The notes beneath the pieces are model-generated. The model saw only the letters and a program-made list of their open reading frames with translations, did not search any database and was not told the origin of the DNA. The position numbers and the translations under genes are program-made. DNA of 62,976 bases, the filler included, from Craspedostauros australis (Eukaryota), in the NCBI GenBank assembly GCA_030167865.1. It is 14 parts of 14 records of this genome, joined end to end, with 100 filler letters (N's around TTAATTAATTAA, not from the genome) between each part and the next. Parts side by side here need not be neighbours in the genome. Positions count along the whole stretch, not along the records: positions 25,495 to 30,652 come from JALAGF010004964.1; 13 more parts are not named here. One strand, 5' to 3'. This document shows positions 1 to 50,409 of this stretch, piece after piece. Positions within the stretch are counted from its first letter, which is position 1. The number at the start of each line of letters is the position of its first letter.

Positions 1-1460
1 GTTGTGCATGTGGCGGCGACGGCCAAGGCGGCCATGGAATGCATCCATGCACGTCGGGATGTCGACGTTGATGGCAGGGATGGTGTGGCGTCAGNNNNNN
101 NNNNNNNGCTCCAGAGAGGATCGGCAGGTGTGGCTGCATCCTGGAATGATTGTTGTGGCACGTTGGATGCGATGGCTTGTCTGGCGTTCTGGAGGAATGC
201 GAAACGGGATGCCGATGGTTGCTCGGGCTCGAACATGGTGGCGAAGAGCTGGGTGTTGGTTGATGTTGGTTGTCTTGTGGTGAATGCCTGTGCTTGGTTG
301 TTGGCGTATGGTGCTGCGAGGACGAGGAGTCCAAGGAAAAGGGAGAGCTTGATGCTGGATGTGGTTGGCTTGCTGTTGTTGTTCATGATCATGATTGTAT
401 TGTGTGTGTTGTGTGTATTGCTGTTGTTTTTGTTGTTGTTGTGGATGTTGTGGCTGTTGTGTTTGTGTCGCTTTTGATTTTGTGAGGAGAGGATGGACAT
501 CGGAAGAATCCACACCAACGCACAGTTGCACACATCCACAAACACAACCACAATGGAGAAGACTGTACAGAGGGAGAAGAACAACACGTGGGTGTTGGAG
601 TCATGATACTCCATGCAGAATCGCCATTCACAGCAACGTCACCAGTTTGATCAGTCCCCACTTATCGTCTCCGTTCTCCCCACGAAACTCAATTACCAAT
701 CCCGAAATGTGGAGAAGCGACCTGGTTGGTTGCCGAAACACGTCATCCATCAGTTCATGCCAGCGGCGAACATTTCGCTGTCCACACACAAACATTCAAC
801 CAGGCCCGAACAAGGCAAGAGCAATGATGCAACAACACCGGTGAGTGGGGAGAGGTTGGTCTTGTGTGGTGATCCCAATCCCAAATCAAATCACATACCA
901 CATACCACATACTTTGGTCCAAGCAACGGCAGAGTGGGGACGCAAACTGCACCTCCAATTTGCGTCGGGACGCAAGCTACGTAGGCCAGTACCAGGCCAA
1001 AATCATTAGGGATACTCGCGCGCTGTAAGTCCGAACCATGGACATCCTCCTGATCGTGCCATCCTTCCTCCTCTTCTCTCTCAACAGGTATTCATACTCC
1101 GACAGATGCGCACGTCTCATCATCCACACAGACGACCTACACATGGTCGAAGCATGTACATGCAACCCAGTAGTCCAGCAGCTTTCGTGATGATGCAACA
1201 TTGACAGGGAACATCAACTTGAGCACCGTCACCAATCGTGGGACACTTGAAGACCAGCTACTCTGTGTGCCTCGCTATTTGAGTCCGAGTATGGCGTACA
1301 GTTGTGGCGGGCGACTGCGGCAGCATCCGCAACCGCAAAAGCGAGAACAGAGACCCGCACACAGTGATAGACTGGCGACAATGCAACATCTCGCGTGCTC
1401 ACTATCGTCGTCATCATCATGGTGATACAGATCCAATCATACGAACCAACGTCATCTTCG

Positions 1461-1620
1461 CCATGCATACCGTGCATACCATGCATACCGTGCATACCAT
1501 GCATACCGTGCATACCATGCATACCGTGCATACCATGCATACCGTGCATACTATGCATACCGTGCATACCGTGCATACCGTGCATACCGTGCATACCATG
1601 CATACCATGCATACCATGCA
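1461..1620. repeat. 9-bp tandem repeat (CCRTGCATA) x ~18
   Basis: Alternating ccatgcata/ccgtgcata units; reads (PCI)n on + and (MHG)n on -. Confidence 0.95.
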
Positions 1621-2452
1621 GGCGATCCATCCTCCTCTCTGCAGTTGCTCTGCAACCAGTTTGCTCCGTCTTGTTTGGTGAAAATGTGAACTGGTTGAGT
1701 CGTGACGGGCCCGTTGTTGTTCTTGTTATTGTTCTCTTGAGTACTTGTAGCGCAATGATGATGATATTTGCGGATTTATGGGCCTTTCTCCGAGAACCAA
1801 TTAACAGTTGGAATGAGCAGGATAAGTCATTCGAAACCAGCACGCCCAACTGTGCATCTCGGGTTGTTGTTGTGTGGGGAGGGGAGAAGGGATGTTGTCT
1901 TTCGTAACGTGTTGTTCGTGGTTGGGTGCGAGATCATTGAAGCCGTGTTGACGGAAGCCTCTATAGAGGCTTCTGATTGGCCATCAAGGATAGACGTGGC
2001 AACGAATTCATGACAAACCGGTGTTCCTGTTTCCACACGTTTGCACCAAGGCTCACTTTCACCACACAACACCACAACTTCGTGTGCTTTGCGGGTGCTC
2101 GCTGCTTGTGGACCCACCTGTATTTCCTGTGTGCCGAACAAGACCAATGCTTGGGGATGGAAGTGTGGCTGAGACTGCTCCAGGAGTTGTGTTCTCTGCA
2201 CTCGCATGTATTCCGCCATGACTAGAACCTGTATGACAGATTGCAGAGGTTGCCGCTCCTGAATCGGCAAGCTGGCACCTTCTTCGTCCTCTCTGTGGCG
2301 TCTGTGAGAAACAAAGCAAAACAAAGCGCCTTGACCTTCCTCTCACAAAATACAAACCCATCCACTCCACAAACCGCAACAACAACAACAACAACAAACA
2401 GCAACAAACAGCAACAACAACAACAGCAACAACAATAATAACAGCAACCGCA

Positions 2453-7180: not shown

Positions 7181-8190
7181 GTAGAAATAGTACTGATGCT
7201 TCTCAAAGTCATGTCCGCGGAAAACGTTGCTCAGGACCTTGAATTTTTTCAGTCGCCCATTGACAGCCTCGTGGCGCGCCCGAACAACACTCTTTGCTCG
7301 CAATTCCGCCACTGAGCCAGCATCATCCGGGGTTCTGATGTGTCCGCTTTCTCCTCTGTAACCGCGATCCGCCTCCACAAGTTCACCAGGAGCAAGGCGC
7401 TGTTTCATTTTCTTGCGAAAGATGACAATGTCACTGACAGATGCCTTGTAAGGCCCATGGATCCACACGATCTCCCCAGTTTGAATCGCAACTCCGACCT
7501 CGTATTTTAACCCTGGACCGTTAAACTTCTCGGAGTACCAGGACTTGTCAAACGGCTTCTGCTCGTAGATGCGCAGATCAGTACCATCAACAGAAACCAA
7601 ACACAATCTCCCTTTAGTGTTCTTGAAGCGATCTCCCCAACAAATCTGCCCGTTGAAAAATGGAAATAGAGCAATGACAGACAACGGTTGTGGAACTTGC
7701 ATGTGAGAATGGCTGTGTGTGTGGCACACATGGTGAATGATATTGTCGTGCGAGGTGCTCTTCTCTGCCAGTACCAACGGTTCCGCGGAATCCCCACAGG
7801 ACTAGTACGAGTAGAGTACACACAGAAGCNNNNNNNNNNNNNNNNNNNNNNNNNNNNNNNNNNNNNNACCAATGCGATTGCTTTCACGACAGGGAAAACG
7901 TGATTGCGCACCGTTCTGTCAGTCACCTTGAGCTCGCTCGCGAGGTCCTCTTCTGTCATGTACTTGCGCATGAAACGCAGTGCCCACAACAAGTACTTGG
8001 GGTGATTTGATTTTGGGGGCGGTGTCCACATCCCCCAAAGAATGGAGCATATTGAGGGGCAACAACCAAAACGACGACGAAACACCGCTCGAAGCTCATC
8101 AACCTGCTTCGTTTGCAATGCGTAGCGCTCATCAAACATGTTCAATGACAACTTGATGAAGTCCATCTCGACGCCTGTGAATCCCTTCAT
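7181..8190 (-). mobile_element. DDE_Tnp_4 (Harbinger/ISL2EU-like) transposase with one intron, 3' truncated
   Basis: Exon 1 from ATG 8190 with HTH-like LLWALRFMRKY..VTDRTVR. Exon 2 from 7645 after a cag acceptor: SVDGTD, KYEVGV, ADRGYRG, RARHEAVNGRLK. Donor hidden in an N gap. Confidence 0.88.
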
Positions 8191-12177: not shown

Positions 12178-12879
12178 TCACGGATGTAGGAAACCGGTCC
12201 AAAGGTCTTCCTCTTGCTTTCCGAGATGGACGAGTCGCTTCCCGCCATCACTTTTTCCATCGTCATCTGCTTTGCCATCATCCCGATTGCTTTCATCCTG
12301 ATTGCTTTCATCAGCCCGTTCATCATCTTTATCTTTGCCATCATCGTCTTCGACATCGATTCGAATGGGATCGAAAGGATTCGAAGGATCACGAAAGATA
12401 CCGTCATCAGAGTCATCGTCGTCAGATGCAGCCTCCGGTTCATTCTTTTTCCATCGGACTCCCTTCCGAATGGGTTGGAACCCATCGTCATCGGCTGCGT
12501 TCGTCCCTTCCGGCTCCTTGGTCTCCAGAATGCGGACGTTGTCTCCAGCTGCCGTCCAGCCTTGATGTTCCCCAAATGTCTTGTCGATCCAGGTCACATC
12601 TCTCGTGTGAACGATCGCATTGGTATCAGGATTGAACATCCTGAATACTCCCGATGCGTGCCTTGTGCTGTATCCCACAAAGACCATTGGCTTACCGCGG
12701 TTCCGCAACTTCGCCGTGATCTTGCCGTGAAGTGACTTCACTATGCCAACCTCTCCGAACGTCCTCAAATGCTCGAGAAACTTTGGTGGAGAACCGAAGA
12801 ACGCCTCGTGGGGAGACTTCCGATTGAGCTTAGTGACCAGGATGTTGGACAAGAGCGTGGCTGTCTCCGCTGCCTCAGC
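12178..12879 (-). mobile_element. Copia integrase C-terminus/SH3 region fragment
   Basis: SPHEAFFG..LRTFGE, KLRNRGKPMVFVGYS, FRMFNP..HTRDVTW. Confidence 0.9.
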
Positions 12880-15695: not shown

Positions 15696-17496
15696 ATGCC
15701 GAGTGTTACGAACACACAACTCATTGATGCTTCCTTCAGAGGTGACTTGGCAGTGTTGAAGAAGTGGAAGAAGCAGAACAAGACACATCATGAAGGAGAT
15801 GGTGTCAACTGCAAAGACATCCACGATTTCACTCCCCTTCAATGGGCATGCTACAACGGCCAGCTGGAGTGTGTCAAGTACCTCATCAAATCATGTGAGG
15901 CGGACATCAACAGCAAAAACAACGATGGTTCCACTCCCCTTCATCACGCATGCTACAACGGCCACCTGGAGTGTGCCAAGTACCTCATCGAATCATGTGA
16001 GGCGGACATCAACTGCAAAGACAACAATGGTGACACTCCCCTTCATCTGGCATGCTACAACGGCCACCTGGAGTGTGCCAAGTACCTCATCGAATCATGT
16101 GAGGCGGACATCAACTGCAAAAACAACGATGGTGACACTCCCCTTCATCTGGCATGCTCCAAAGGCCACCTGGAGTGTGTTGCGTACCTCGTTGCATCAG
16201 CCAATGCCGATACCGACATTCAAAACAAAGACAACAAAACGCCCCTCGATATGATCGATGCAACACTTCAAATCAAGATAAACCGTCTCACACATCTGAG
16301 TCGCTGCAACCCACAACTGCAGCAGCAGTTGAAAGAGAATGAGCAGGAGAATGAACAACTGAAACAGCAGTTGAAATGGAAGGAGGAAGAGAAGACACAG
16401 AAGGAGGAAGAGAATGAACAACTGAAACAGCAGTTGGAACGAGAGGAGGAAGAGAAGAAGCAGAAGGAGCAAGAGAATGAACAACTGAAACGGCAGTTGG
16501 AACGGAAGGAGCAAGAGAATGAACAACTGAAACAGCAGTTGGGACGAGAGGAGGAAGAGAAGACACAGAAGGAGCAGGAGAACGAACAACTGAAACAGCA
16601 GTTGGAACAACAGTTGGAACAGCAGAAGGAAGAAATGCAACACATGCTCTCGAAAAGTCAACAGGAGAAAGAACAGCTGAAACAGCAGCTGAAACAACAT
16701 CTCAAGATCAGCATCGACCAAGATCGTCTCGTCGCTATTCGTGCTGAGGCCATCGCAGACATTACCTTCCTGTGTGGACAAGGGGACGAACAACAAGCAA
16801 TCAAGGCAAACTCCGGAGTCCTCAGGGTCACTGTCCCATCCATTCAGACACTGATCAACAAAGGAATCCAACATCAGCACGCGAATGATGACACCGAAGA
16901 CGGCGCGGTCCCCATCGAAACAACTATCCCTCTCCCCAACCTTCAACCAAAACACGTCCGATATGTCCTCCAATGCATCTACTCAGGCGAGATATCCTTC
17001 AATGACAGCGCTCATAATGACAACGCTGCTGCTCACGTCAGCGCTCACATCGGCGCTCACTCCAACTCACACCACGATACAAATGCCTCTCACCAGCCAA
17101 CTCCCACCCTCAATGGACAGGACGATCTGCAACAGCTCATCCTTGTGGCCAACGAGTTCGGCTTCTGGCGACTCAAGCTTGCTCTTGAAGCAGAGTTGGC
17201 CCGCAAGCATCTCACAGAGGACACCATGATAGATGTGTTGATATTCGCCGATCAACACAACTGCGTGGTGTTGAAGGATACCGCAATGAGGATGGCAGCT
17301 GAAAATGAGAACAAATTGTTCACTCATCCAGATTCTAAGCAGCTATTTCATCACCCTCACCTAATGGGAGTCATTCATGACCTCTGCCATGGTAGAATGG
17401 AGAGTGACGGACTTGATGATGAGTACAGTGGCATGTCCATGATGGAGCTGTACAAGGTCATAGATGAGGACAAGGGTACAGAACAAGTGGATTCAT
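15696..17496 (+). CDS. Ankyrin (4 repeats) / coiled-coil / BTB-POZ(+BACK-like) protein, 3' truncated
   Basis: TPLHxACYNGHLEC repeats, ENEQLKQQL heptads, ADITFLCG..YVLQCIYSG..LVANEFGFWRLKLALE. Start chosen by homology with the 28230 paralogue. Confidence 0.9.
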
Positions 17497-17596
17497 NNNN
17501 NNNNNNNNNNNNNNNNNNNNNNNNNNNNNNNNNNNNNNNNTTAATTAATTAANNNNNNNNNNNNNNNNNNNNNNNNNNNNNNNNNNNNNNNNNNNN

Positions 17597-25394: not shown

Positions 25395-25494
25395 NNNNNN
25401 NNNNNNNNNNNNNNNNNNNNNNNNNNNNNNNNNNNNNNTTAATTAATTAANNNNNNNNNNNNNNNNNNNNNNNNNNNNNNNNNNNNNNNNNNNN

Positions 25495-27411: not shown

Positions 27412-28229
27412 TTGTGATTGCTGAAATGAACACAAGTGAAATTTATAGATAATGGGGGCTATGGAAGTAACATACTTAGCACAATGCAGATTTGTGCTGA
27501 TATTCATAGCATGCCCTTTTGGAAACATGGAACTTGACTTCATGGTAGGGTTGGTTGCCGAGCATGTTGGTCAAAGCACTGATCAACTCTGTGGGTGTCA
27601 TCAAAGACATGCCAGCACATGCGCAAAAATACACACACCCAGAATGTACGGAGGCGCCTATGACCTTTTGGGCCAATGGCAACATGCAACGACCATTTCG
27701 AACCAGTTGTGTGCCACGGTCAATGATCTCTCGCATTCGTTGTGCTTCAACAGATGTCCAAACAGACGTTGATCTTCTTCGATGGTTTTACTCATAGCAG
27801 TCGAAGATTCTCGTTTTCAGCGATGTCACGCAACAGAACTCTGTTGTCCCTCCTTCTTTCTTCTTGTTGTCCACGTACATTTTCGCAATGGATGGGAACC
27901 GGTGGATGCGAACCAGAACCAGGGGTGCGATCAAGAGAAGGACCCAAATCAGAATCAGGGGTGCGATCAAGAGAAGGAGGCAAACACAAAGAGAAGACCA
28001 AGACAACAAGACAACAAGACAACAAGACAACAACACACACCACTCAACCCCATACTCGAGCACATCAACAACAGACATCGAGTTACCACACAGTGTATGA
28101 TACCCATACGAATACAAGCTTTTGAAGACACCACCATCGATATCTCCGCCATAGGTAACTCGAACTACACTCTTCCTCGACAGCCAATCCAACGTCAATC
28201 GTCCAGTAATCACCGACCATCCCCTCAAA

Positions 28230-30652
28230 ATGCCGAATGTTACGAACGAACAACTCTTTGCTGCTGTCATGGCAGGCGACTTGTCGGTGTTGCAGGAATG
28301 GAAGACGCAGAACCAGACGCAGAATGAAGGAGTTGATGTCAACAAGGTCACAGACAGGAGTGGTTACACCCCCCTCCATGTGGCATGCATAAACGGCCAG
28401 CTGGAATGTGCGAAGTACCTCATCGAATCATGCAGGGCCGACACCAACTGCAAAGACAAAGATGGTTTCACTCCCCTCCATGTGGCATGCATAAACGGCC
28501 AGCTGGAATGTGCGAAGTACCTCATCGAATCATGCAGGGCCGACACCAACTGCAAAGACAAAGATGGTTTCACTCCCCTTCATGTGGCATGCATAAACGA
28601 CCAGCTGGAGTGTGTCAAGTACCTCATCGAATCACACGGGGCTGACATCAACTGCAAAAACAGCAATGGTTTCACTCCCCTTCATGTGGCATGCAGTAAC
28701 GGCCAGCTGGAATGTGTGAAGTACCTCATCGAATCACGCGGGGCTGACATCAACTGCAAAAGCAACGATGGTGAAACTCCCCTTCATCGGGCATGCCACA
28801 ACGGTCAGCTGGAGTGTGTGAAGTACCTCATCGAATCATGCAGGGCCAACACCAACTGCAAAGACAACAAAGGTCTCACTCCCCTCCATGTGGCATGCAT
28901 ATACGGCCAGCTGGAATGTGCGAAGTACCTCATCGAATCATGCAGGGCCGACACCAACTGCAAAGACAAAGATGGTTTCACTCCCCTTCATGTGGCATGC
29001 ATAAACGACCAGCTGGAGTGTGTCAAGTACCTCATCGAATCACACGGGGCTGACATCAACTGCAAAGACAACAATGGTGGCACTCCCCTTCATGTGGCAT
29101 GCAGTAACGGCCAGCTGGAATGTGTGAAGTACCTCATCGAATCACGCAGGGCCAACATCAACTGCAAAGACAACAATGGTGAAACTCCCCTTCATGGGGC
29201 ATGCTACAACGGCGAGCTGGAGTGTGTGAAGTACCTCATCGAATCATGCAGGGCCAACGCCAACTGCAAAGACAATGGCGGTGGCACTCCCCTTAATGAC
29301 GCATGCCAAACCGGCCACCTGGAATGTGTGAAGTACCTCATCGAATCACGCAGGGCCAACATCAACTGCAAAGACAACAATGGTCTCACTCCCCTTCATC
29401 TGGCATGCATGTACGGCCAGCTGGGGTGCATCAAGTACCTCATCGCATCAGCCAATGCCGATATCGACATCCAAAACAAAGACAACAAAACCCCTCTCGA
29501 TGTGATCAGCACAAACGATCAAATCAAGGTGATGAGATCGATCATCACTGGTCTCAGTCTCCGCAACCTGCAACTGCGGCAGCAGTTGAAAGAGAACAAG
29601 CAGGAAGGCCAGCAACTGAAGCTGGAGTTGGGACAGCAGAAGGAAGAAATGCAGCGCATGCTCTCAAAAAGTCAACGAGAGAGCAAACAACTGAAACTGC
29701 AGTTGGAACGGGAGGGGCAAGAGAAGGACCAGGAGAACGAACAACTGAAGTGGCAGTTGAAACAGCAGAAGGAAGCAATGCAGGGCATGCTCTTGAAGAG
29801 TCAACGAGAGAACGAACAACTGAAATGGCAGTTGGAACGGGAGGGGCAAGAGAAGAACAAGAAGGGCCAGGAGAATGAACAACGAAAACGGCAGTTGAAA
29901 CAACAGAAGGAAGAAATGCAGGACATGCTCTCAAAAAGTCGATGGGAGAACGCACAACTGAAGCGGGAGTTGGGACAGCAGACGGAAGAAATTCGGCGTT
30001 TGCTCTTGAAAAGTCAACGAGAGAGCGGACAACTGAAACGGAAGTTGGAATGGGAGGGGCAAGAGAAGAACAAGAAGAACCAGGAGAACAAGCGACTGAA
30101 ACAGCAGTTGAAACAGCAGTCAAAACAACAGCCAAAACAGCAGAAGGAAGCAATGCAGGGCATGGTCTCGACAACTCGACGGGAGAACGAACAGCTGAAA
30201 CAGCAGTTGGAACGGAAGGGGCAAGAGAAGAAACAAAAGGACCAGGAGAACGAACAACTGAAGCGGCAGTTGAAACAGCAGAAGGAAGCAATGCAGGGCA
30301 TGGTCTCGAAAACTCAACGAGAGAGCGAACAACTGAAACGGCAGCTGAAACAACACTTCAAGATCAGCATCGACCAAGATCGTCGCACCGCTGTTCGTGC
30401 CGAGGCCATCGCAGACACTACCTTCCTGTGCGGACAAGGGGACGACCAACAATCAATCAAGGCAAACTCCGCAGTCCTCATTGTCACTGTTCCATCCATT
30501 CAGACATTGATCAACTCTGGAATCCAACATCAATGCGCTCACGATGGTGCTCAAGATGGAACTGAACCCATCCAAACAACCATCCCTCTTCCCAACCTTC
30601 AACCAAAACACGTCCGACACGTCCTCCAATGCATCTACACAGGTGAGATGTC
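28230..30652 (+). CDS. Ankyrin (11 repeats) / coiled-coil / BTB-POZ protein, 3' truncated
   Basis: Eleven 34-aa/102-bp repeats (28362-29483), long Q/E/K coiled coil, BTB start ADTTFLCG..HVLQCIYTG; paralogue of the 15696 gene. Confidence 0.92.
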
Positions 30653-30752
30653 NNNNNNNNNNNNNNNNNNNNNNNNNNNNNNNNNNNNNNNNNNNNTTAA
30701 TTAATTAANNNNNNNNNNNNNNNNNNNNNNNNNNNNNNNNNNNNNNNNNNNN

Positions 30753-35927: not shown

Positions 35928-37505
35928 ATGACCTCACCGTCTCTCATTCCGCCCAAGTCGACCTCTGATGATGCATCCCCGTCAATCATCACCCATCAGG
36001 ATCTCCTACGCGCCGCAGAACAAGGAGACATGGATACCCTCACTGCGTGGAAGACAGCATTCCCACAAACCTCCATCGACACGATCAAGGATGACCGCGA
36101 CAAGACTGCACTCCACTTCGCATGCTCCAACGGCCAACTTGAAACGATCAAACAGTTGATGGAATCATGCGGAGCAAACGTCAATGCCAAATCCATGGAT
36201 GGAGAGACTGCGCTACACTATGCATGCGCACAGGGCAACCTTGATGTCGTGGAATACCTGGCCGGATCGCATGCCGCAGATGTCAACCTCCAGGATAACT
36301 CCGGCAAGGTGGCACTCCACGACGCTTGTACCGAGGGTCATGTGGCCATCGTGAAGACTCTGATCGAGTCACATTCTGCAAGCGCTCTCGTGCAAGATGA
36401 GAAGGGTGAGAATGCCCTCCATGCTGCGTGTCTTCATGGACACTTGGATGTTGTGGAGTACTTCGTTGGATCATGTGGAGTGGAAATCAATGTGCAAGAT
36501 GAATCTGGCAATACTGCGATCCACAATGCGTGTCTGAAGGGTCATCTTCACATTTTGAAGTATGTGATGGAGGCTCGTACTGTGGCCATCGACGTCCAGA
36601 ACAATGACGGCGATACCGCACTCCATATTGCTTGTAGAAACGGTCATTTGGATGTTGTGAAATGGTTGGTGGAGTCAGGTCAGGTGGACATCAATGCCAA
36701 AGACGAGAATGGCGACAGTAGCCTTCACTGCGCAAGTGCTGGAGGTCATCTGGATTTGGTGAAGTATTTGTTGGAATCAGGCGAAGCCAACGTGAATGCT
36801 GAGAATCATGAGCGCGAGACTCCAGTCTACAAGGCATATTGCCACAGCCACTTCGATGTTGTCGAGCATCTCATCGGAACACCAAGCATACATCCCAACT
36901 CCCAACACGAGGATGGCAACACCGTGCTCCATCTCGCAAGTGGCGGTGGCCATCTCGATGTTGTGAAGTGGCTGGTTGAATCCGGCAAAGCCAATATCAA
37001 CGCGAAGAACGACAAGCACGAGACTCCACTCTACAAGGCATATCGCAACAGCCACTTCGAGGTTGTCAAGTATCTGGTCGCAGCACCTACTGTCGATTTG
37101 AACGTCAAAGGCAAGGATGGTCGATCGATACTCCATCGCGCAAGCGCTGATGGTCATCTCGACGTTGTGAAGTCGTTGGTTGAACAAGGCAAGGTAGATG
37201 TCAACATCAAAACCAACAGGTCTGGCAACACTGCACTGCACAGAGCGTGCTTCAATGGTAGATTGGAGGTTGTGAAGTATTTGGTGAAAGTCTGGAACGC
37301 AGAAATCAACATTCAAAACAAGTATGGCAGAACTCCACTTTGGCGGGCAAGTTTCTGTGGCCATTTGGAGGTGGTCAAGTACTTGGTGGAATCGTGCAAC
37401 GCAGACATCAGCATCAAGACCAGCAGTGGCTTGACTGCGCTGAATATTGCGATTAAAAAGGGCCGCACTGATGTTGTCGACTACTTGACCATTCTTGCTT
37501 CATGA
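35928..37505 (+). CDS. Ankyrin repeat protein (~14 divergent repeats)
   Basis: Repeated TALHxAC..GHLDVVKYLVE. Confidence 0.92.
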   Translation: MTSPSLIPPKSTSDDASPSIITHQDLLRAAEQGDMDTLTAWKTAFPQTSIDTIKDDRDKTALHFACSNGQLETIKQLMESCGANVNAKSMDGETALHYACAQGNLDVVEYLAGSHAADVNLQDNSGKVALHDACTEGHVAIVKTLIESHSASALVQDEKGENALHAACLHGHLDVVEYFVGSCGVEINVQDESGNTAIHNACLKGHLHILKYVMEARTVAIDVQNNDGDTALHIACRNGHLDVVKWLVESGQVDINAKDENGDSSLHCASAGGHLDLVKYLLESGEANVNAENHERETPVYKAYCHSHFDVVEHLIGTPSIHPNSQHEDGNTVLHLASGGGHLDVVKWLVESGKANINAKNDKHETPLYKAYRNSHFEVVKYLVAAPTVDLNVKGKDGRSILHRASADGHLDVVKSLVEQGKVDVNIKTNRSGNTALHRACFNGRLEVVKYLVKVWNAEINIQNKYGRTPLWRASFCGHLEVVKYLVESCNADISIKTSSGLTALNIAIKKGRTDVVDYLTILAS

Positions 37506-37933: not shown

Positions 37934-39583
37934 CTATTTCTGCACACCCATCTCCTCATCGGTGTCAGCCTCGGAGCTCTCGTTCTCCTCCTGGTTCAGC
38001 TTGTTCATGGCAGCAGTCTCCATGCGAAGGGCAGACTCGAAGACGGGGGCATTCTCCTCGTTGCTGCAGGCGTTGATCTCCTCGCGAAGTCCCTTGATGT
38101 TAGACAGGATGCGCTCGCGACGGACGGAGTAAGACTCGTTCTGTGTGGCCAAAGCCTTCTGGAGCTCGAGGTACTCGCGTGGGACGGCGGTAGAACCGGC
38201 CTCACCGACAAGCACGTTGGTTCCCAAATGCATGTTGCGGTTGCTCTGGTGGTATGGCTTCATGCCGGCGGCTCGCTCCTCTGGGGTGCCGATGTACACC
38301 TCATCGAGCTGGAAGCCAGAGACGGCCTTGTGAATGGAGGCAAGAACCCAGGCACCGGAGCAGATACCGGTGGCTTCCAACAACAGACAGAACTGGAGGA
38401 AGATGTAGACGATTGGGTTGGAGAGGAAGGCGATGGGGAAGACGGATGCGACCAGCTGCCATGTGATGGAGGCGATGATGGTGGTGATGAGGGCTCCGAG
38501 AAGTCCGGTGTTGAAGAATTCCTGGGTGCTGTCAGAGACTCCGAAGATGTTCTCGCCTTCGCCCACCTCGACATCGAGGGTGGTGACATGGGCGATGATG
38601 AAGAAGCACATGGTCACGCAGATCTGACGTCCGATCATGAATCCTGGAAGGTTGCGTCCGTCACCGCGGAAGAGGAGCTCGCAGGTCTTGCGGGCCATTG
38701 GATGGTCTCCACGCTCCTCCTTTGGAAGCTTGGCGACGGCGAAGAAGGCGATCTGCATACCCTCGAGCATACCAACGATGGACATGAAGAGGAAGAAGAG
38801 GATGACAGCGACTCCGTTTGTCACTCCGGCCCACATGGTGGTCTTTCCATCGAAGAGGGCGACCAGGGTGACGGCCATGGCGTAGCACAGGATGGCGAGG
38901 GAGATGAGGATGCGGCTCCAGTAGAAGAGGTTCTGGGCACCGTCGCGTGGTGGTTCCTTCGACTCGATTTCCTTGCCGGAGGCTCAGACGAAGAACATCT
39001 GGACGAGGTAGCACGAATGCAGAAGTCCAGAGAACTCGATGGCGAGGGCGACGTAGAGGGTGAAGACGGCGAAGAAGTTGTTGATGTAGTCAAGCATGCA
39101 CAGGGAGACGTTGACTTGGGAGTTGAACAGTCCGGCTTGAGCAGTCATGAGGATCATGGCGGCTCCGGATCCGAGGAAGATCTGGATGATGATGTCTGGG
39201 AGTCCGAAGACTTCGGCGTCAGCGAGCGGGGCACCGCACTGGTTGATGGTGAAGACCATGAGGAGGACCATGAACTGACGTCCCATGAGGTAGTGATCGA
39301 GGTTGTCACCCTTGTGGGCGAGGGAGGTGCACTTGTGGCTGGTTGGGTGGGATTCGACGTAGAGGTCGCGGTCGACTGGTGGGAGACCGACGAGGGAACC
39401 CTGTCCTCCCTCCACCATGTTGAGCCAGACAAGGGCGGCGATCATGATGACGACGGCGACCACTGGGTGGACCTCGGACGAGACCTTGGTCTGCTCATTG
39501 AAGACGAGTCCGCAGACGATGGTGATCGAGAAGATGAGGAGTCCAGTGGAGTACACCGACTTGATGAGCTGAATGGGATCCAT
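37934..39583 (-). pseudogene. SIT: Silicon transporter with a single in-frame TGA (38984-38986)
   Basis: All four GXQ motifs (EGGQ, GRQ, EGMQ, GRQ), multiple TM helices, C-terminal coiled coil. Both ORF halves share a frame: ..QMFFV*ASGKEIES.. Confidence 0.93.
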
Positions 39584-39780
39584 CTTGGTTGTTGTTGTGT
39601 TGATACTCTGGTTGTTGCTGTGATTGAGCGTTGCAGAGATTGCGAGATTTGAGATTGTGAGTGATGTACAGTCGGGTTCGATGAATGCCGTGAAGGCATG
39701 TGTGGTTGAATGTGGTCGTACGTGGTCGTATGCAGTTGCACATAACGCATTGGTTTCGAAAATAACGGATGTGACACAAT

Positions 39781-40137
39781 TGTCGCGACATGGGTTATAA
39801 GCGTTAATTTCTTGTGTTCATGCAGGACGTGGACTGGCTCCGTGGTTCGATTCCGCAGCGCGCTATTTTAACATGGTAGCGTGGCCTAAGGTTCGATTCC
39901 GTCGGCTGGTACCCACCCCTGCTACAAAAACACACAGAAACACCCGAAACTTGCCGACTGCCTACAGCGGCAGTATAAAGATAGAGTGTGGGGGGTCCTC
40001 ATGATAGGGGGGCTCAAGGGCATGAATCCAAGAATTAGGGAGGGTGTCGCGANATGGGTTATAAGCGTTAATTTCTTGTGTTCATGCAGGGCGTGGACTG
40101 GCTCCGTGGTTCGATTCCGCAGCGCGCTATTTTAACA
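39781..40137 (+). mobile_element. Complete TRIM (miniature LTR retroelement), 357 bp
   Basis: 93-bp LTRs 39781-39873 and 40045-40137 (TG..CA, 1 mismatch plus 1 N), PBS TGGTAGCGTGG at 39874, PPT AGGGAGGG 40037-40044, TSD CACAAT on both sides. Confidence 0.93.
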
Positions 40138-46637: not shown

Positions 46638-48809
46638 TCACAAGAACAGGATCATCGAAGCTGGCAGCAGCAGCAGCTGCGCCAGACAACCCGCGATCAA
46701 TGCCATCGCTGGTTTCGTTGATGCGTCGGATGCTGGAGTTGGCATGGATGTTGGAACGGACGTTGGCAGGCTGACGGGCAAATCAGTGTGCGATGACGAT
46801 GGCGCGATGCTCGGAGTACTGCTTGGCTCAGAAGACGGTGATTGCGATGGCAGTTCCACCACAAGATCTGCAAGGTCGAAGTTTTCCGGGAGCACCAGTC
46901 CCTCGATGATGTGAACGATCCCATTGGAGGCAAGGAAGTTGGTCTCCAACACCTTGACTCCGTTGACGGTGAGCTCGGTTGACGATCTTTCAAGATTGAA
47001 GACTCTCCCATTCTGCGCGGCCAACCATGTCACGCCGAAATCGATCTGGTTGATCGAGGCGACCTCAAGAGACATGTGCCCGTCAATGATGTCAAAAATA
47101 AGATCGGGTCGGTCCAACAGCTTTGCGTAAGCTGCTGGATCCTGCTGTTCCAACTTTTGAAAGGCTTCATCCGTGGGCGCCATGAGGGTGACGTCGGTCT
47201 CTCCGACAAGCTTGCTCTTCAGCTGTGGGCTGCGTTGGATCATCATGGCGAGGGTTCTCAAAGAGTCGTTCGTGCTGACCACGTCGACAATGGACATCCC
47301 GAACCATAATGGGACATGCGCGGCGTCGATGGTATGGACGACGCCTAGATTGAACGAGGTGATATCTGCCTTGACAATTGTGGCTATGCCGTTGATGGTA
47401 ATGCTGGGATCACCGGAGGACGTGGCTTCGCCACCAGGCTCGGTGACGGAGATGAGCAGCGGGTTGGCATCGAGGGTGCGTAGCTGATCCCCGTCATTCA
47501 TGGATTCGGTCGTCACGATTTGACCGGTGACAATGTAACGTAGCGCGAAGTCTTCGGCGTGAGCAGCAAATCCCGGCGGTATGCGCTTTTCGCGAAAGAG
47601 AGATGCGAGATCGGAGATGGCGCTGTTTCTTGGGGCGAAGACCGTGACATTCGGTTCCAGCTTGAGAGCGTTGAGAGCAATGGGTGCGTAGGCTACAATC
47701 GTGTGAAAATTGGCGAGGTCGTCATCGAGCACAAGGCGCTCCAACGCTGTCGTCGGAAGAATCGGCGATGTGACGAAATGAAAGTAACCGTTTGAAGCGA
47801 CCAAAGAGATTCCAAGAAAACTCCCCCCTCCAACAATAACAGCATTTTCAGTCTCACGTAGAGTAAGGCGAGTGAACGTGAGCTCCTGACCAAGCAAGGT
47901 GATGGGGACCGCATTCTCATTCTCATTCTCGGTAATAAGAAGCCTGTCGAAGGGATCATTGACGATGTGCTGCAGCAGCAAGTTCCTGCGAAGGACGGGG
48001 TCCTCGAAATGGCGAACGTAGAGTGGATTCAAGAGGGCTCTATTCATTTCGGGGTTGGTGACAAGGAAGGCCGTGTAACCAGCGTTGGTGTCAATCAGGT
48101 CGAGCAGACCCTCCTCCTGGAGCATGTCACGGAAGTTGGTGGAGGAGACGTCATCCGATACACTCTGCGCAAGATTTCGTCGCATCCATCTACTGGTGAT
48201 GACCGAGTCAATGATGTGGACGATCCCGTTGGTCGCAGGGATAGATCGGATGACGTTGGCGGTGCCGTCGAACGTGGAAATGGTGAAGTCACCAGACGGA
48301 GATCCGGTGAGCCTCCAAAAAGGGAATTCATTCCGTCTGAGGAGCTCCACAAAGACAGCGTCAATGAAGGTGTCCGGATCGAGGAGGATGTGGCTTTCGA
48401 CGAAAAGACGAGACTGTTCACGCCACCTTCCTCCGTCAAACTGGTTGAGAAGGGCCTGGTTGAAGTTCCCCATTGCCTCGTTGCTGGGGAGCAGCATCGT
48501 GAAGAACCTTCGTGCAAATCTGATGTTCTTGTTGTCAACGATGAGATCGACAACTTCGACAAACCTGGACAGTTCCGGCTCCGATGTCATGATCTCCGCA
48601 ACCGTCAAGGTGGGCGAGGCTGCCCTGCGCGAAGCGACTGCGGACGAGCGCCCATGGTCCGTGCCAATGGTCTGATCAGCTTCAACTTGAATGCCGACGC
48701 CGGTGTCGATCACACCAACTCCAACGTCGTGCAACTCGCCAATGCAGACGCACTCGTGTGCAAAGGCAACAGCCACGACGGCCACCAGAGGCTTCCACGT
48801 TGCCCTCAT
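46638..48809 (-). CDS. Fasciclin (4x FAS1) surface protein with signal peptide and probable GPI tail
   Basis: TVFAPRNSA/TLMAPTDEAF (H1) and ATNGIVHIID/ASNGIVHIIE (H2) motifs, P/S stalk, hydrophobic ends. Confidence 0.92.
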   Translation of the reverse strand: MRATWKPLVAVVAVAFAHECVCIGELHDVGVGVIDTGVGIQVEADQTIGTDHGRSSAVASRRAASPTLTVAEIMTSEPELSRFVEVVDLIVDNKNIRFARRFFTMLLPSNEAMGNFNQALLNQFDGGRWREQSRLFVESHILLDPDTFIDAVFVELLRRNEFPFWRLTGSPSGDFTISTFDGTANVIRSIPATNGIVHIIDSVITSRWMRRNLAQSVSDDVSSTNFRDMLQEEGLLDLIDTNAGYTAFLVTNPEMNRALLNPLYVRHFEDPVLRRNLLLQHIVNDPFDRLLITENENENAVPITLLGQELTFTRLTLRETENAVIVGGGSFLGISLVASNGYFHFVTSPILPTTALERLVLDDDLANFHTIVAYAPIALNALKLEPNVTVFAPRNSAISDLASLFREKRIPPGFAAHAEDFALRYIVTGQIVTTESMNDGDQLRTLDANPLLISVTEPGGEATSSGDPSITINGIATIVKADITSFNLGVVHTIDAAHVPLWFGMSIVDVVSTNDSLRTLAMMIQRSPQLKSKLVGETDVTLMAPTDEAFQKLEQQDPAAYAKLLDRPDLIFDIIDGHMSLEVASINQIDFGVTWLAAQNGRVFNLERSSTELTVNGVKVLETNFLASNGIVHIIEGLVLPENFDLADLVVELPSQSPSSEPSSTPSIAPSSSHTDLPVSLPTSVPTSMPTPASDASTKPAMALIAGCLAQLLLLPASMILFL

Positions 48810-50409
48810 CTTCCTGTTCTACTAGCATGTACGTGACTTCCACAGTCAAAGCAGCTGCAGTTGCTCTTCAGTCTCTTCCGTCTCCTCTGTCTCCGCCACG
48901 TTTCGTCTTGCCCTCTCCGTCCACTGTCTGCGCTGCTCGTACTGCGTACATGCAATAGATCGTATTTGTGGCATGTCACAACTACCATCGTAATTGGGGC
49001 TCGCCATCACTCGAAGCTCTCGCCCTTGTGGCCGATCAATGCGGGTGTCGCCAAGGAACCATTTGCGCCACCATCAAGCGGTTCTCCACACATAACACAC
49101 AACCTGCACTACCGACCACCATAACCAACGCATCCTACAAGAATGGATAGTTCGTGACTCAGTGTGCTTCCAAGTCACATGAGTCGAACGTTTGACAAAT
49201 TTATGCCTGAGGGATGGACAGACGGAAAATAGTGTGTCCATGTTAGTAGTCCACGACTGAACGCATGACATAGTATGTCCCAATCACGCATTCAAAATAT
49301 GACATTTCATTTGGCCTACCGAGGCCATTCTAGTTGTACGTATTGTTGGTACAAAAGGGACACCCTTATGAGAGTCCAGACGATCAGAACAGGTCTTTAC
49401 GGATCTATGGACATGCTGGTACCACACACTATTCCTGTGGTGCTTGAAGGTGAATCTAATTTCTCCACACGTCGACAGCACATGACTTCGCAGTCTCCCT
49501 CGTGTTGGAATGACCCACTGCAGTTTGCGCATGTGGAGACGTTTGGTAATGTGATTTGCCTCACTTGAGCACTGTGCTATGTCACAATACTACACTGCAC
49601 TGCACTGCACTGCCCTGTACTCTGCAACACAAGACTATCAGGAAGAGTGCATCCGAGATCATTCACCGTCCTTGTTGAGCTCGGTTGGTTGTGCCCTGGC
49701 GCCAGTAACCATCAGAGAGAGTCCTCGTCTTGTCAAGTCGTTGACAGAACAAAGCACCTGTCGCCTCCGAACCTGCGCACGTGGAAATCACACATTTTGT
49801 GATCATTGGTTTGGTTCGCGGACATCGCCGCGCGAACACACATAAAAGGAGGACGAGGCACACTTAGGTCCATCGCAGGGACATTTAACGTCAAATGACA
49901 AAATTGTGCAGGACAATCGGCATGCGGCGCCGCAAGCACGCACTTCTCGCACGTGGAAATCCATGTGAATTATGTGTGCACGATATGTCGATATCATCAC
50001 AACTGAATACTGTACTATTAAATTAAAAACTTGTGGCACTCCCGCCGCTATTTAAAATTGATAACACGAGCCAAATTTTCGGCGTCACACAAACATCATG
50101 ACGGACGCCATCGGCCAACATCACCAAAAGCAATCTCTGCCATCTCCTCGGCGGTCGAGACCAGCCAAAGACTGCTGAGGATACGAACGACCGACTATAC
50201 TTCTCATGGTACTCCATCCGGTCGAACCTTGTCGTTTGCTTCTTCATCATCATCAGCGGCGGCGGTAGCGACAGCAGCGAAGAAGACGAGGACAATCACA
50301 GAAGAAGAAAGGTGTTCGGAGGACGGATCAACAGCTCTCACACATCCCTGCATAGCCGCAGAACAGGAGACGGCAGTCAGCAACGAACAACGAACAACAA
50401 GCAGAGTCA

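Follow-up and report, generated by a model that had tools for sequence, protein, structure and literature searches.

Architecture of the ankyrin-BTB gene

We analysed a 62,976-base stretch of DNA (hereafter the window) from the diatom Craspedostauros australis (GCA_030167865.1), in which 14 unlinked contigs of 1.6-7.8 kb are joined end to end, and describe here a gene within it that encodes an array of near-identical ankyrin repeats, a long repetitive linker and the beginning of a BTB domain. The same artificial spacer, N44-TTAATTAATTAA-N44, stands at every contig join (for example at 30653-30752, 25395-25494 and 17497-17596); since the window is made of joined unlinked contigs, the order of genes across the spacers carries no information. 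The ankyrin-BTB gene sits on the contig at 25495-30652, on the plus strand. Its reading frame is open over 807 codons from 28230 and reaches the end of the contig without a stop codon. The end given in the original prediction, 30652, is the last base of this frame, but it is the end of the contig and not of the gene, with N runs and the TTAATTAATTAA spacer coming next. In contigs of a public sequencing run the frame is carried past the loose ends 30648/30649 as ..GE(I/K)SFN.., like the paralog described below. A GTGAG at the contig end was considered as the start of an intron and was ruled out by the continuation of the frame in these public-run contigs.

The gene opens with a start codon and N-terminal cap (MPNVTNEQLFAAVMAGDLSVLQEWK...; 28230..28361, plus strand), recognised by translation and family alignment and conserved across the family, for which the structural model predicts helices at residues 6-15 and 18-30. 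The cap is followed by eleven in-register ankyrin units of 102 bp, or 34 residues, each (28362..29483, plus strand), delimited by Tandem Repeats Finder, Pfam and the solenoid model. Tandem Repeats Finder reported a single array at 28361-29450 (period 102, 10.7 copies, 85% matches, 0% indels, score 1492), in agreement with the cut made by register, and the eleven repeats with a nearly invariant scaffold that had been proposed are thus borne out. The scaffold reads G-x-TPLH-x-AC-xx-GQLEC-x-KYLIES-xx-A-xx-NCK-xxx. In the predicted protein (P0001), Pfam places ankyrin repeats in 11-12 stretches (PF00023, 388 bits in 11 stretches; PF12796, 375 bits). The ankyrin part was modelled as a canonical solenoid with a predicted local distance difference test (pLDDT) score of 85.5, and the model matches the AnkB structure 4rlv with a template modelling (TM) score of 0.80 and a root-mean-square deviation (rmsd) of 2.9. 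The array closes with a degenerate twelfth repeat, or C-terminal cap (NKTPLDVIS...; 29484..29585, plus strand), which is ~40% identical to the units and, in the family alignment, keeps its position in both the paralog and the relatives from Craspedostauros.

The eleven units are on average 84.4% identical in DNA (68.6-98.0%), and units 1-10 are 86.6% identical (77.5-98.0%). Amino-acid identity between units averages 72.7% for all eleven and 76.7% for units 1-10, with only some pairs reaching 97%. By comparison, identity is 54.4% between the units of the window's second ankyrin gene (35928-37505), a level that represents the ordinary state. A four-unit block of 408 bp is present twice, at 28464..29279 on the plus strand, and the recurrence of units 2-5 (28464-28871) as units 6-9 (28872-29279), noted originally, holds at 94.9% identity, the four unit pairs being 98, 98, 92 and 91% identical. 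Units 1 and 2 are 98% identical. Ordered by informative sites, the unit types run a, a-b-c-d, a-b-e-d, e, f, and type e resembles the 5' half of c fused to the 3' half of d.

Variation within the scaffold falls where it had been described: all the residues listed are present before TPLH (Y/F/E/L/G), after TPLH (V/R/G/D/L) and after AC (IN/SN/HN/IY/YN/QT/MY), and the beta-turn varies at unit positions 32-34. Further variable positions, absent from that description, are 24/25 (C/H/R/A and R/G/N), 17, 27 and 28; the variation at 24/25 forms a second cluster at the end of helix 2, outside the classical face. The array is also cysteine-rich (37 Cys in 374 residues, 9.9%), which is unusual for a cytosolic ankyrin domain. 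Cysteines occupy the nearly fixed scaffold positions 9, 16 and 30 and, in 5 of the 11 units, the variable position 24.

Downstream of the C-terminal cap, residues 456-705 (29595..30344, plus strand) form a repetitive linker of 250 residues, of which 74% are Q, K, E, L or R, with a module of ~43 residues (Tandem Repeats Finder periods 129-213 nt). The start of the linker, modelled to residue 476, is one long helix. This region had been called a coiled coil; it is repetitive, Q/K/E-rich and predicted to be helical, but a 3.5-residue heptad periodicity is absent globally and appears only as a weak local signal (reached in 7 of 300 shuffles). A coiled coil is plausible. The gene then enters a BTB domain, of which the N-terminal two thirds are present (ISIDQDR... 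to ...CIYTGEM; 30363..30652, plus strand) before the contig end cuts it. The Pfam match to BTB (PF00651) spans residues 726-806 and profile positions 9-75 of 110, with 22.4 bits against a cut-off of 20.5, and ankyrin and BTB are the only Pfam families found in this protein. The BTB part is 79% identical to that of the paralog.

A paralog with a predicted SPOP-like BTB/3-box/BACK fold

The window contains a paralog (P0002, 600 residues; 15696..17495, plus strand) in which the N-terminal cap is followed by 4 ankyrin units and their cap, and a shorter linker leads to a BTB/3-box/BACK region that is complete; the contig ends ~40 residues short of the family C-terminus. Homology of the two loci begins ~400 bp upstream of the start codon, and the 5' flank and leader of the ankyrin-BTB gene (27835..28229, plus strand) are 73-75% identical to the upstream region of the paralog in a blastn comparison of the two contigs. 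The leader contains a microsatellite, (CAAGACAA)4.9, at 27999-28037, found by Tandem Repeats Finder.

Pfam matches in both proteins uphold the proposed architecture of ankyrin repeats, helical linker and BTB. In the paralog the BTB domain scores 27.2 bits against the cut-off of 20.5, and a weak match to BACK_BPM_SPOP (E 0.0049) lies below the cut-off. Neither protein gave a Pfam match to a MATH domain (E<=0.1) or to NACHT or NB-ARC.

The last 266 residues of the paralog were folded using an alignment of 35 sequences, giving a model with a mean pLDDT of 84.4 and a predicted TM score of 0.80. Helices at 177-257 of this model come after the BTB core and correspond to the 3-box/BACK helices. The top PDB matches are SPOP BTB-BACK chains: Foldseek aligned 4j8z_B with an E-value of 7.7e-8 and a target TM score of 0.82, and VIA-align superposed 175 of 179 residues on 4j8z_A with Z 16.9 and an rmsd of 2.4 Å (SPOP matches, Z 16.9-17.0). 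The next structural matches, at Z 12.7-14.5, are KEAP1, NPR1 (Z 14.5), vaccinia A55 and KLHL11, within an overall range of Z 10-17 against BTB structures. The matched entries for A55, KLHL11, KLHL3 and KBTBD2 were solved in complex with Cullin-3. Viral BTB structures match worse than SPOP (best E 4e-6), and nothing points to a viral origin. In a profile search of the family alignment against solved structures, ankyrin matches dominated.

Within the BTB domain of the paralog, residues ~440-480 (~17015-17135) form a His/Asn/Ala-rich insertion of ~40 residues, modelled with low confidence. The insertion is also found in the paralog's closest relative and is shorter or absent in other family members.

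A small family of the diatom lineage

The proposal of a gene family is well founded: in addition to the paralog in the window, a HMMER pass over 1.84 billion representative proteins gave 93 matches at E<=1e-3, of which 19 reach E<=1e-10 and 8 reach E<=1e-30. Among the 26 of these 93 matches that were scanned with Pfam, 6 carry ankyrin repeats together with BTB, and 14 carry MATH with BTB or BACK; outside the family, MATH-BTB proteins of the SPOP/BPM class are therefore its closest relatives. The BTB domains of the family score marginally in Pfam (22-34 bits; cut-off 20.5). All named relatives are from Craspedostauros australis, and the others are marine-transcriptome-tagged sequences or JGI contigs; family members occur in transcriptome-derived collections of a relative. 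The family is small and belongs to the diatom lineage.

The relatives carry from 1 to ~11 ankyrin units that are mutually 28-56% identical on average, and most are without the long Q/K/E linker. Because the units of the relatives are diverged, near-identical units are a feature of the two genes in the window and not of the whole family. A protein search with full-length P0001 recovered no close paralog: its 4335 matches at E<=1e-30 were all long, generic ankyrin proteins, with best identities of 27-47%. Metagenome contigs scanned with the paralog C-terminus and the family alignment yielded no relative, nor did the viral contigs scanned. No description of a diatom ankyrin-BTB family was found in our literature search.

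Origin of the array

Units within the gene are 84-98% identical to each other and 68-85% identical to the units of the paralog. In a maximum-likelihood tree of 15 units, the last unit of one gene pairs with that of the other, by position (support 97/99), while internal units never pair between genes, and the three internal units of the paralog form their own weakly supported group. Such a pattern is usually seen where the edge repeats are old and the internal units were amplified or homogenised once the genes had split. In one 90% cluster from a relative, three sequences that are identical in the regions flanking their internal ankyrin units (over the stretches printed) hold 4, 4 and 6 such units, which are combined differently but always in register. 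These unit-number variants fit unequal exchange, although they may instead be artefacts of transcript assembly.

The repeat shuffling that had been suggested therefore stands in part. The 408-bp duplication and the unit-number variants in the relative are in its favour, and in a four-gamete test 19 of 91 pairs of sites among units were incompatible, requiring recombination or recurrent mutation. A permutation test for recombination between units, similar to the pairwise homoplasy index (PHI), was not significant (1478 of 5000). From these comparisons, the array would have grown recently by in-register tandem duplication, one four-unit block included. After duplication the units would have retained a nearly invariant scaffold, even at silent sites, with amino-acid change since then mainly at beta-turn and first-helix positions of the concave binding face.

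Probable diversifying selection on the binding face

Differences between units fall at codon positions 1, 2 and 3 in the numbers 208, 199 and 206, and the overall ratio of nonsynonymous to synonymous rates (dN/dS) between units is 0.90-0.98, far from ordinary purifying selection. Change is unevenly placed along the unit: 14 of the 34 codons are without any residue change, and nonsynonymous events are clumped, with an index of dispersion of 2.07 that was matched in 8 of 10000 shuffles.

The sites to be tested were drawn from the literature to avoid post-hoc choice. In the available text on the ANK-N5C library (PMC4308713), positions 2, 3, 5, 10 and 13, plus 33, are given as the most variable in natural repeats and as lying on the concave binding surface, and the accessible part of a survey of 7407 ankyrin repeats assigns its positions 32-12 to the concave, interaction-enriched face. 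The library positions correspond to unit positions 33, 34, 2, 7 and 10 (plus 31). The five positions randomised in this library of DARPins (ankyrin repeat proteins made by design) correspond to five among the six positions that vary most in the natural unit, as the original prediction of variation at DARPin-like randomised positions had it.

We compared nonsynonymous with silent change by counting minimum substitution events per codon in a binomial test, with transition/transversion ratios of 1-4. At the five library codons the nonsynonymous rate is 3.9-5.4 times the whole-unit silent rate (p 1.3e-4 to 2.5e-6), and omitting unit 11 or enlarging the set of sites gave a similar excess. For the concave-face positions the event-count test gave a rate ratio of 3.4-5.4 (p 1e-3 to 2.5e-6). 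A conservative count, allowing one event per new residue type, retained 18 nonsynonymous against 10 silent events (p 0.0015), and the excess of nonsynonymous change at the variable sites, on which the original prediction was to be judged, is thus present. Among the youngest copies (units 1/2, 2/6 and 3/7), 5 of 6 differences change the residue, four of them at unit positions 2, 11 and 33 and one at 32, in the beta-turn. These results support diversifying selection on the binding face of the units.

Between the paralogs, at dS 0.2-0.3, dN/dS is 1.41 for the N-terminal cap (43 codons, and hence noisy), 0.89 for the last unit, 0.68 for the internal units and 0.40 for the BTB part. Since dN/dS is lowest in the BTB part, the substrate-side domains change faster than the BTB domain.

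The array in public sequencing data

One public run contains the stretch (0.33 of words) and may be the source sample; two other public runs had no matching contigs, and among the sequencing runs listed no RNA run contained the stretch. From the first run, 634 contigs fit the locus at >=90%, of which 201 fit in two places. Up to 14 contigs carry another letter at a single site, which indicates many near-copies, and cover is zero over the four opening depth bins (27500-27923). Skips of 703, 423, 1034 and 330 nt within the array occur in one contig each, and a fifth contig steps back 204 nt in the linker; in all five the sides are only 22-43 letters long. After subtraction of replaced letters, three skips amount to 4, 10 and 3 whole units, a correspondence that is unreliable with such short sides.

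Other genes in the window

The second ankyrin gene, at 35928-37505 on the plus strand, is complete and ankyrin-only, encoding 525 residues with ~13 diverged 34-residue units and a family-like N-terminal cap. On the same contig, ~430 bp away, lies a silicon transporter gene in two adjoining open reading frames (ORFs; 37934-39817, minus strand; Pfam Silic_transp, 6e-143 and 3e-91), which fits a diatom source. The background of a diatom paper, in the portion of it available, mentions ankyrin proteins (dAnks) in connection with silica morphogenesis. Other contigs contain mobile-element fragments at 7181-7801 and 12178-12879, both on the minus strand, with a DDE_Tnp_4 transposase domain and a retroviral-type polymerase SH3-like domain. 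A fasciclin-domain ORF (46638-48818, minus strand; 3 stretches, 3e-47) and a collagen-like repeat ORF (1229-1933, minus strand) also lie on other contigs.

Discussion

We favour, with moderate confidence, the reading that the locus is a real but incompletely assembled gene with a recently formed array, whose product presents a fast-evolving ankyrin face on a SPOP-type BTB/BACK Cullin-3 adaptor. The protein would consist of an ankyrin solenoid (N-terminal cap, 11 units and C-terminal cap), a long helical linker and a C-terminal BTB/3-box/BACK region of the SPOP/MATH-BTB type. The BTB/BACK end would dimerise, as expected by analogy, and dock on Cullin-3, and the ankyrin face would recruit targets for ubiquitylation, with a specificity that evolves fast under diversifying selection. 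Candidate targets include pathogen, mating-related or ordinary cellular proteins. We infer the Cullin-3 adaptor function from the modelled SPOP-like BTB/3-box/BACK fold and from the MATH-BTB proteins being the next-nearest relatives.

Several observations weigh against this reading. The gene is cut inside its BTB domain, and its own BACK region is unseen. Within the array there are exact repeats of 164 nt, at an offset of 408 and the longest run shared by the two block copies, and of 107 nt, at an offset of 102, such that short-read assembly could misorder units or mix paralogs, and no public-run contig spans the array. The array might accordingly be in part an artefact, with real units of several paralogs or alleles whose number and order were made by the assembler. 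Beside the exact repeats, the short contigs of the draft, the 201 of 634 public-run contigs that fit two places and the many near-copies implied by up to 14 differing contigs at a single site all fit such an origin. We nevertheless regard it as doubtful: the array is fully in frame without gaps or Ns, its unit types follow one another in an orderly way (a, a-b-c-d, a-b-e-d, e, f), and its distinct terminal units match those of the paralog by position. Even with a wrong order, the statistics for each position would still apply to genuine units of the family. The test for selection is itself crude, being based on 11 non-independent units from one draft locus and on minimum-event counts rather than a codon model, and the test for recombination between units was not significant. 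The concentration of variation is moreover expected, because the same positions are the least constrained in ankyrin repeats generally, and for that reason the case for selection is made solely by comparing with silent change. A young repeat expansion by slippage or unequal crossing-over, followed by drift at exposed positions in a protein that has an ordinary fixed partner or is decaying, would account for this concentration, for a dN/dS between units near 1 with equal change across codon positions, as under neutrality, and for the fairly high dN/dS of the BTB part between paralogs. Relaxed constraint, however, cannot lift the nonsynonymous rate above the silent rate, and at binding-face codons it is 3.4-5.4 times higher, an excess that the conservative count keeps. 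The 14 of 34 codons without amino-acid change, the open frame of 807 codons and the family members in transcriptome-derived collections of a relative also speak against a non-adaptive origin, which we consider unlikely.

The link to Cullin-3 is subject to further reservations. A single-sequence search with the C-terminus finds SPOP at only E 0.081, and the strong SPOP profile match (9e-45) is partly circular because the alignment included MATH-BTB proteins. SPOP contacts Cul3 through a hydrophobic-x-Glu motif in the alpha3-beta4 loop. In 15 family sequences both the length and the sequence of this loop vary, and no column of conserved Glu was seen in it, the alignment there being unreliable. 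Many BTB proteins do not bind Cullin-3, and the diatom protein could be an oligomeric ankyrin scaffold that uses its BTB/BACK end for self-association only, rather than a ubiquitin-ligase receptor. The lack of conservation in the alpha3-beta4 loop and the marginal Pfam BTB scores agree with a scaffold, but the fold includes 3-box/BACK helices, its top matches are SPOP, KEAP1, NPR1 and entries in complex with Cullin-3, and the closest relatives outside the family are MATH-BTB proteins; we judge a pure scaffold to have a low probability. It is quite improbable, in our assessment, that the family serves sexual reproduction, through mate or gamete recognition or the control of meiotic proteins, rather than defence. 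The available text of a study of Seminavis robusta (PMC7335047) reports expanded BTB/POZ families with reproduction-biased expression, among genes with an elevated ratio of nonsynonymous to synonymous diversity (piN/piS), yet these families may be distinct from the ankyrin-BTB family and may lack ankyrin repeats. The role in innate immunity suggested originally is likewise speculative. A broader version of the Cullin-3 reading, in which a SPOP-derived Cullin-3 receptor diversified by duplication, exchange and positive selection into a diatom repertoire for non-self or mate recognition, is distinctly speculative, and we would not expect it to hold. If it were true, diatoms would have reached independently the logic of fungal NLR repeats and of nematode MATH-BTB expansions, and the family would tag fast-changing viral, bacterial or gamete proteins for ubiquitylation.

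The diatom protein shares with SPOP and other MATH-BTB (BPM) proteins, its best structural match, the order of a substrate-binding domain followed by BTB, 3-box and BACK. It differs in having an ankyrin array where SPOP has the MATH substrate-binding domain, in the long repetitive helical linker that precedes BTB in the diatom proteins and, in the paralog, in the ~40-residue low-confidence His/Asn/Ala-rich loop inside BTB; without the defining MATH domain, it is not a member of the SPOP/MATH-BTB family. The proteins ASB (ankyrin-SOCS box), poxvirus ankyrin/F-box-like and animal ABTB/BTBD11 also combine ankyrin repeats with a cullin-adaptor or BTB domain. In ASB and the poxvirus proteins the adaptor boxes are different (SOCS and F-box), and no sequence relationship is shown beyond the shared domains. 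The plant protein NPR1 combines ankyrin repeats and BTB and is a structural match at Z 14.5, but has BTB before the ankyrin repeats.

In nematode and plant MATH-BTB and F-box families, positive selection is reported to act on the substrate-binding and not the cullin-binding domain (Thomas 2006, as cited in the accessible part of PMC4334554), an asymmetry that our comparison of paralogs matches, the BTB part being the most constrained. Fungal NLRs, as described in the sections available (Dyrka et al. 2014, PMC4986451), likewise have ankyrin units of 33-34 residues with high internal conservation and a varying number of repeats, and their variable or positively selected sites lie on the concave face, in the inner helix and beta-hairpin. 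In contrast to these NLRs, the diatom protein is without NACHT or NB-ARC, its partner domain is BTB/BACK and it comes from a diatom. The same source defines a highly conserved repeat by an internal identity >85% over at least 100 residues, and the 73-77% amino-acid identity of the diatom units falls short of that value, which also weighs against the favoured reading. Compared with the designed libraries, the natural unit of 34 residues has an extra residue after helix 2, by alignment to ankyrin-1, and its units also vary at positions 24/25, which are fixed in the libraries.

Each ingredient is familiar from other systems, in which cullin adaptors evolve rapidly, repeats are conserved internally, and ligase receptors use ankyrin repeats for recognition. 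Little is known about the intracellular recognition of viruses, bacteria or mates in diatoms. If the favoured reading is true, the array would be a natural counterpart of designed ankyrin binders, and a lineage-restricted, fast-changing ankyrin surface joined to a ubiquitin-ligase-type module would offer a testable candidate for intracellular recognition in diatoms.

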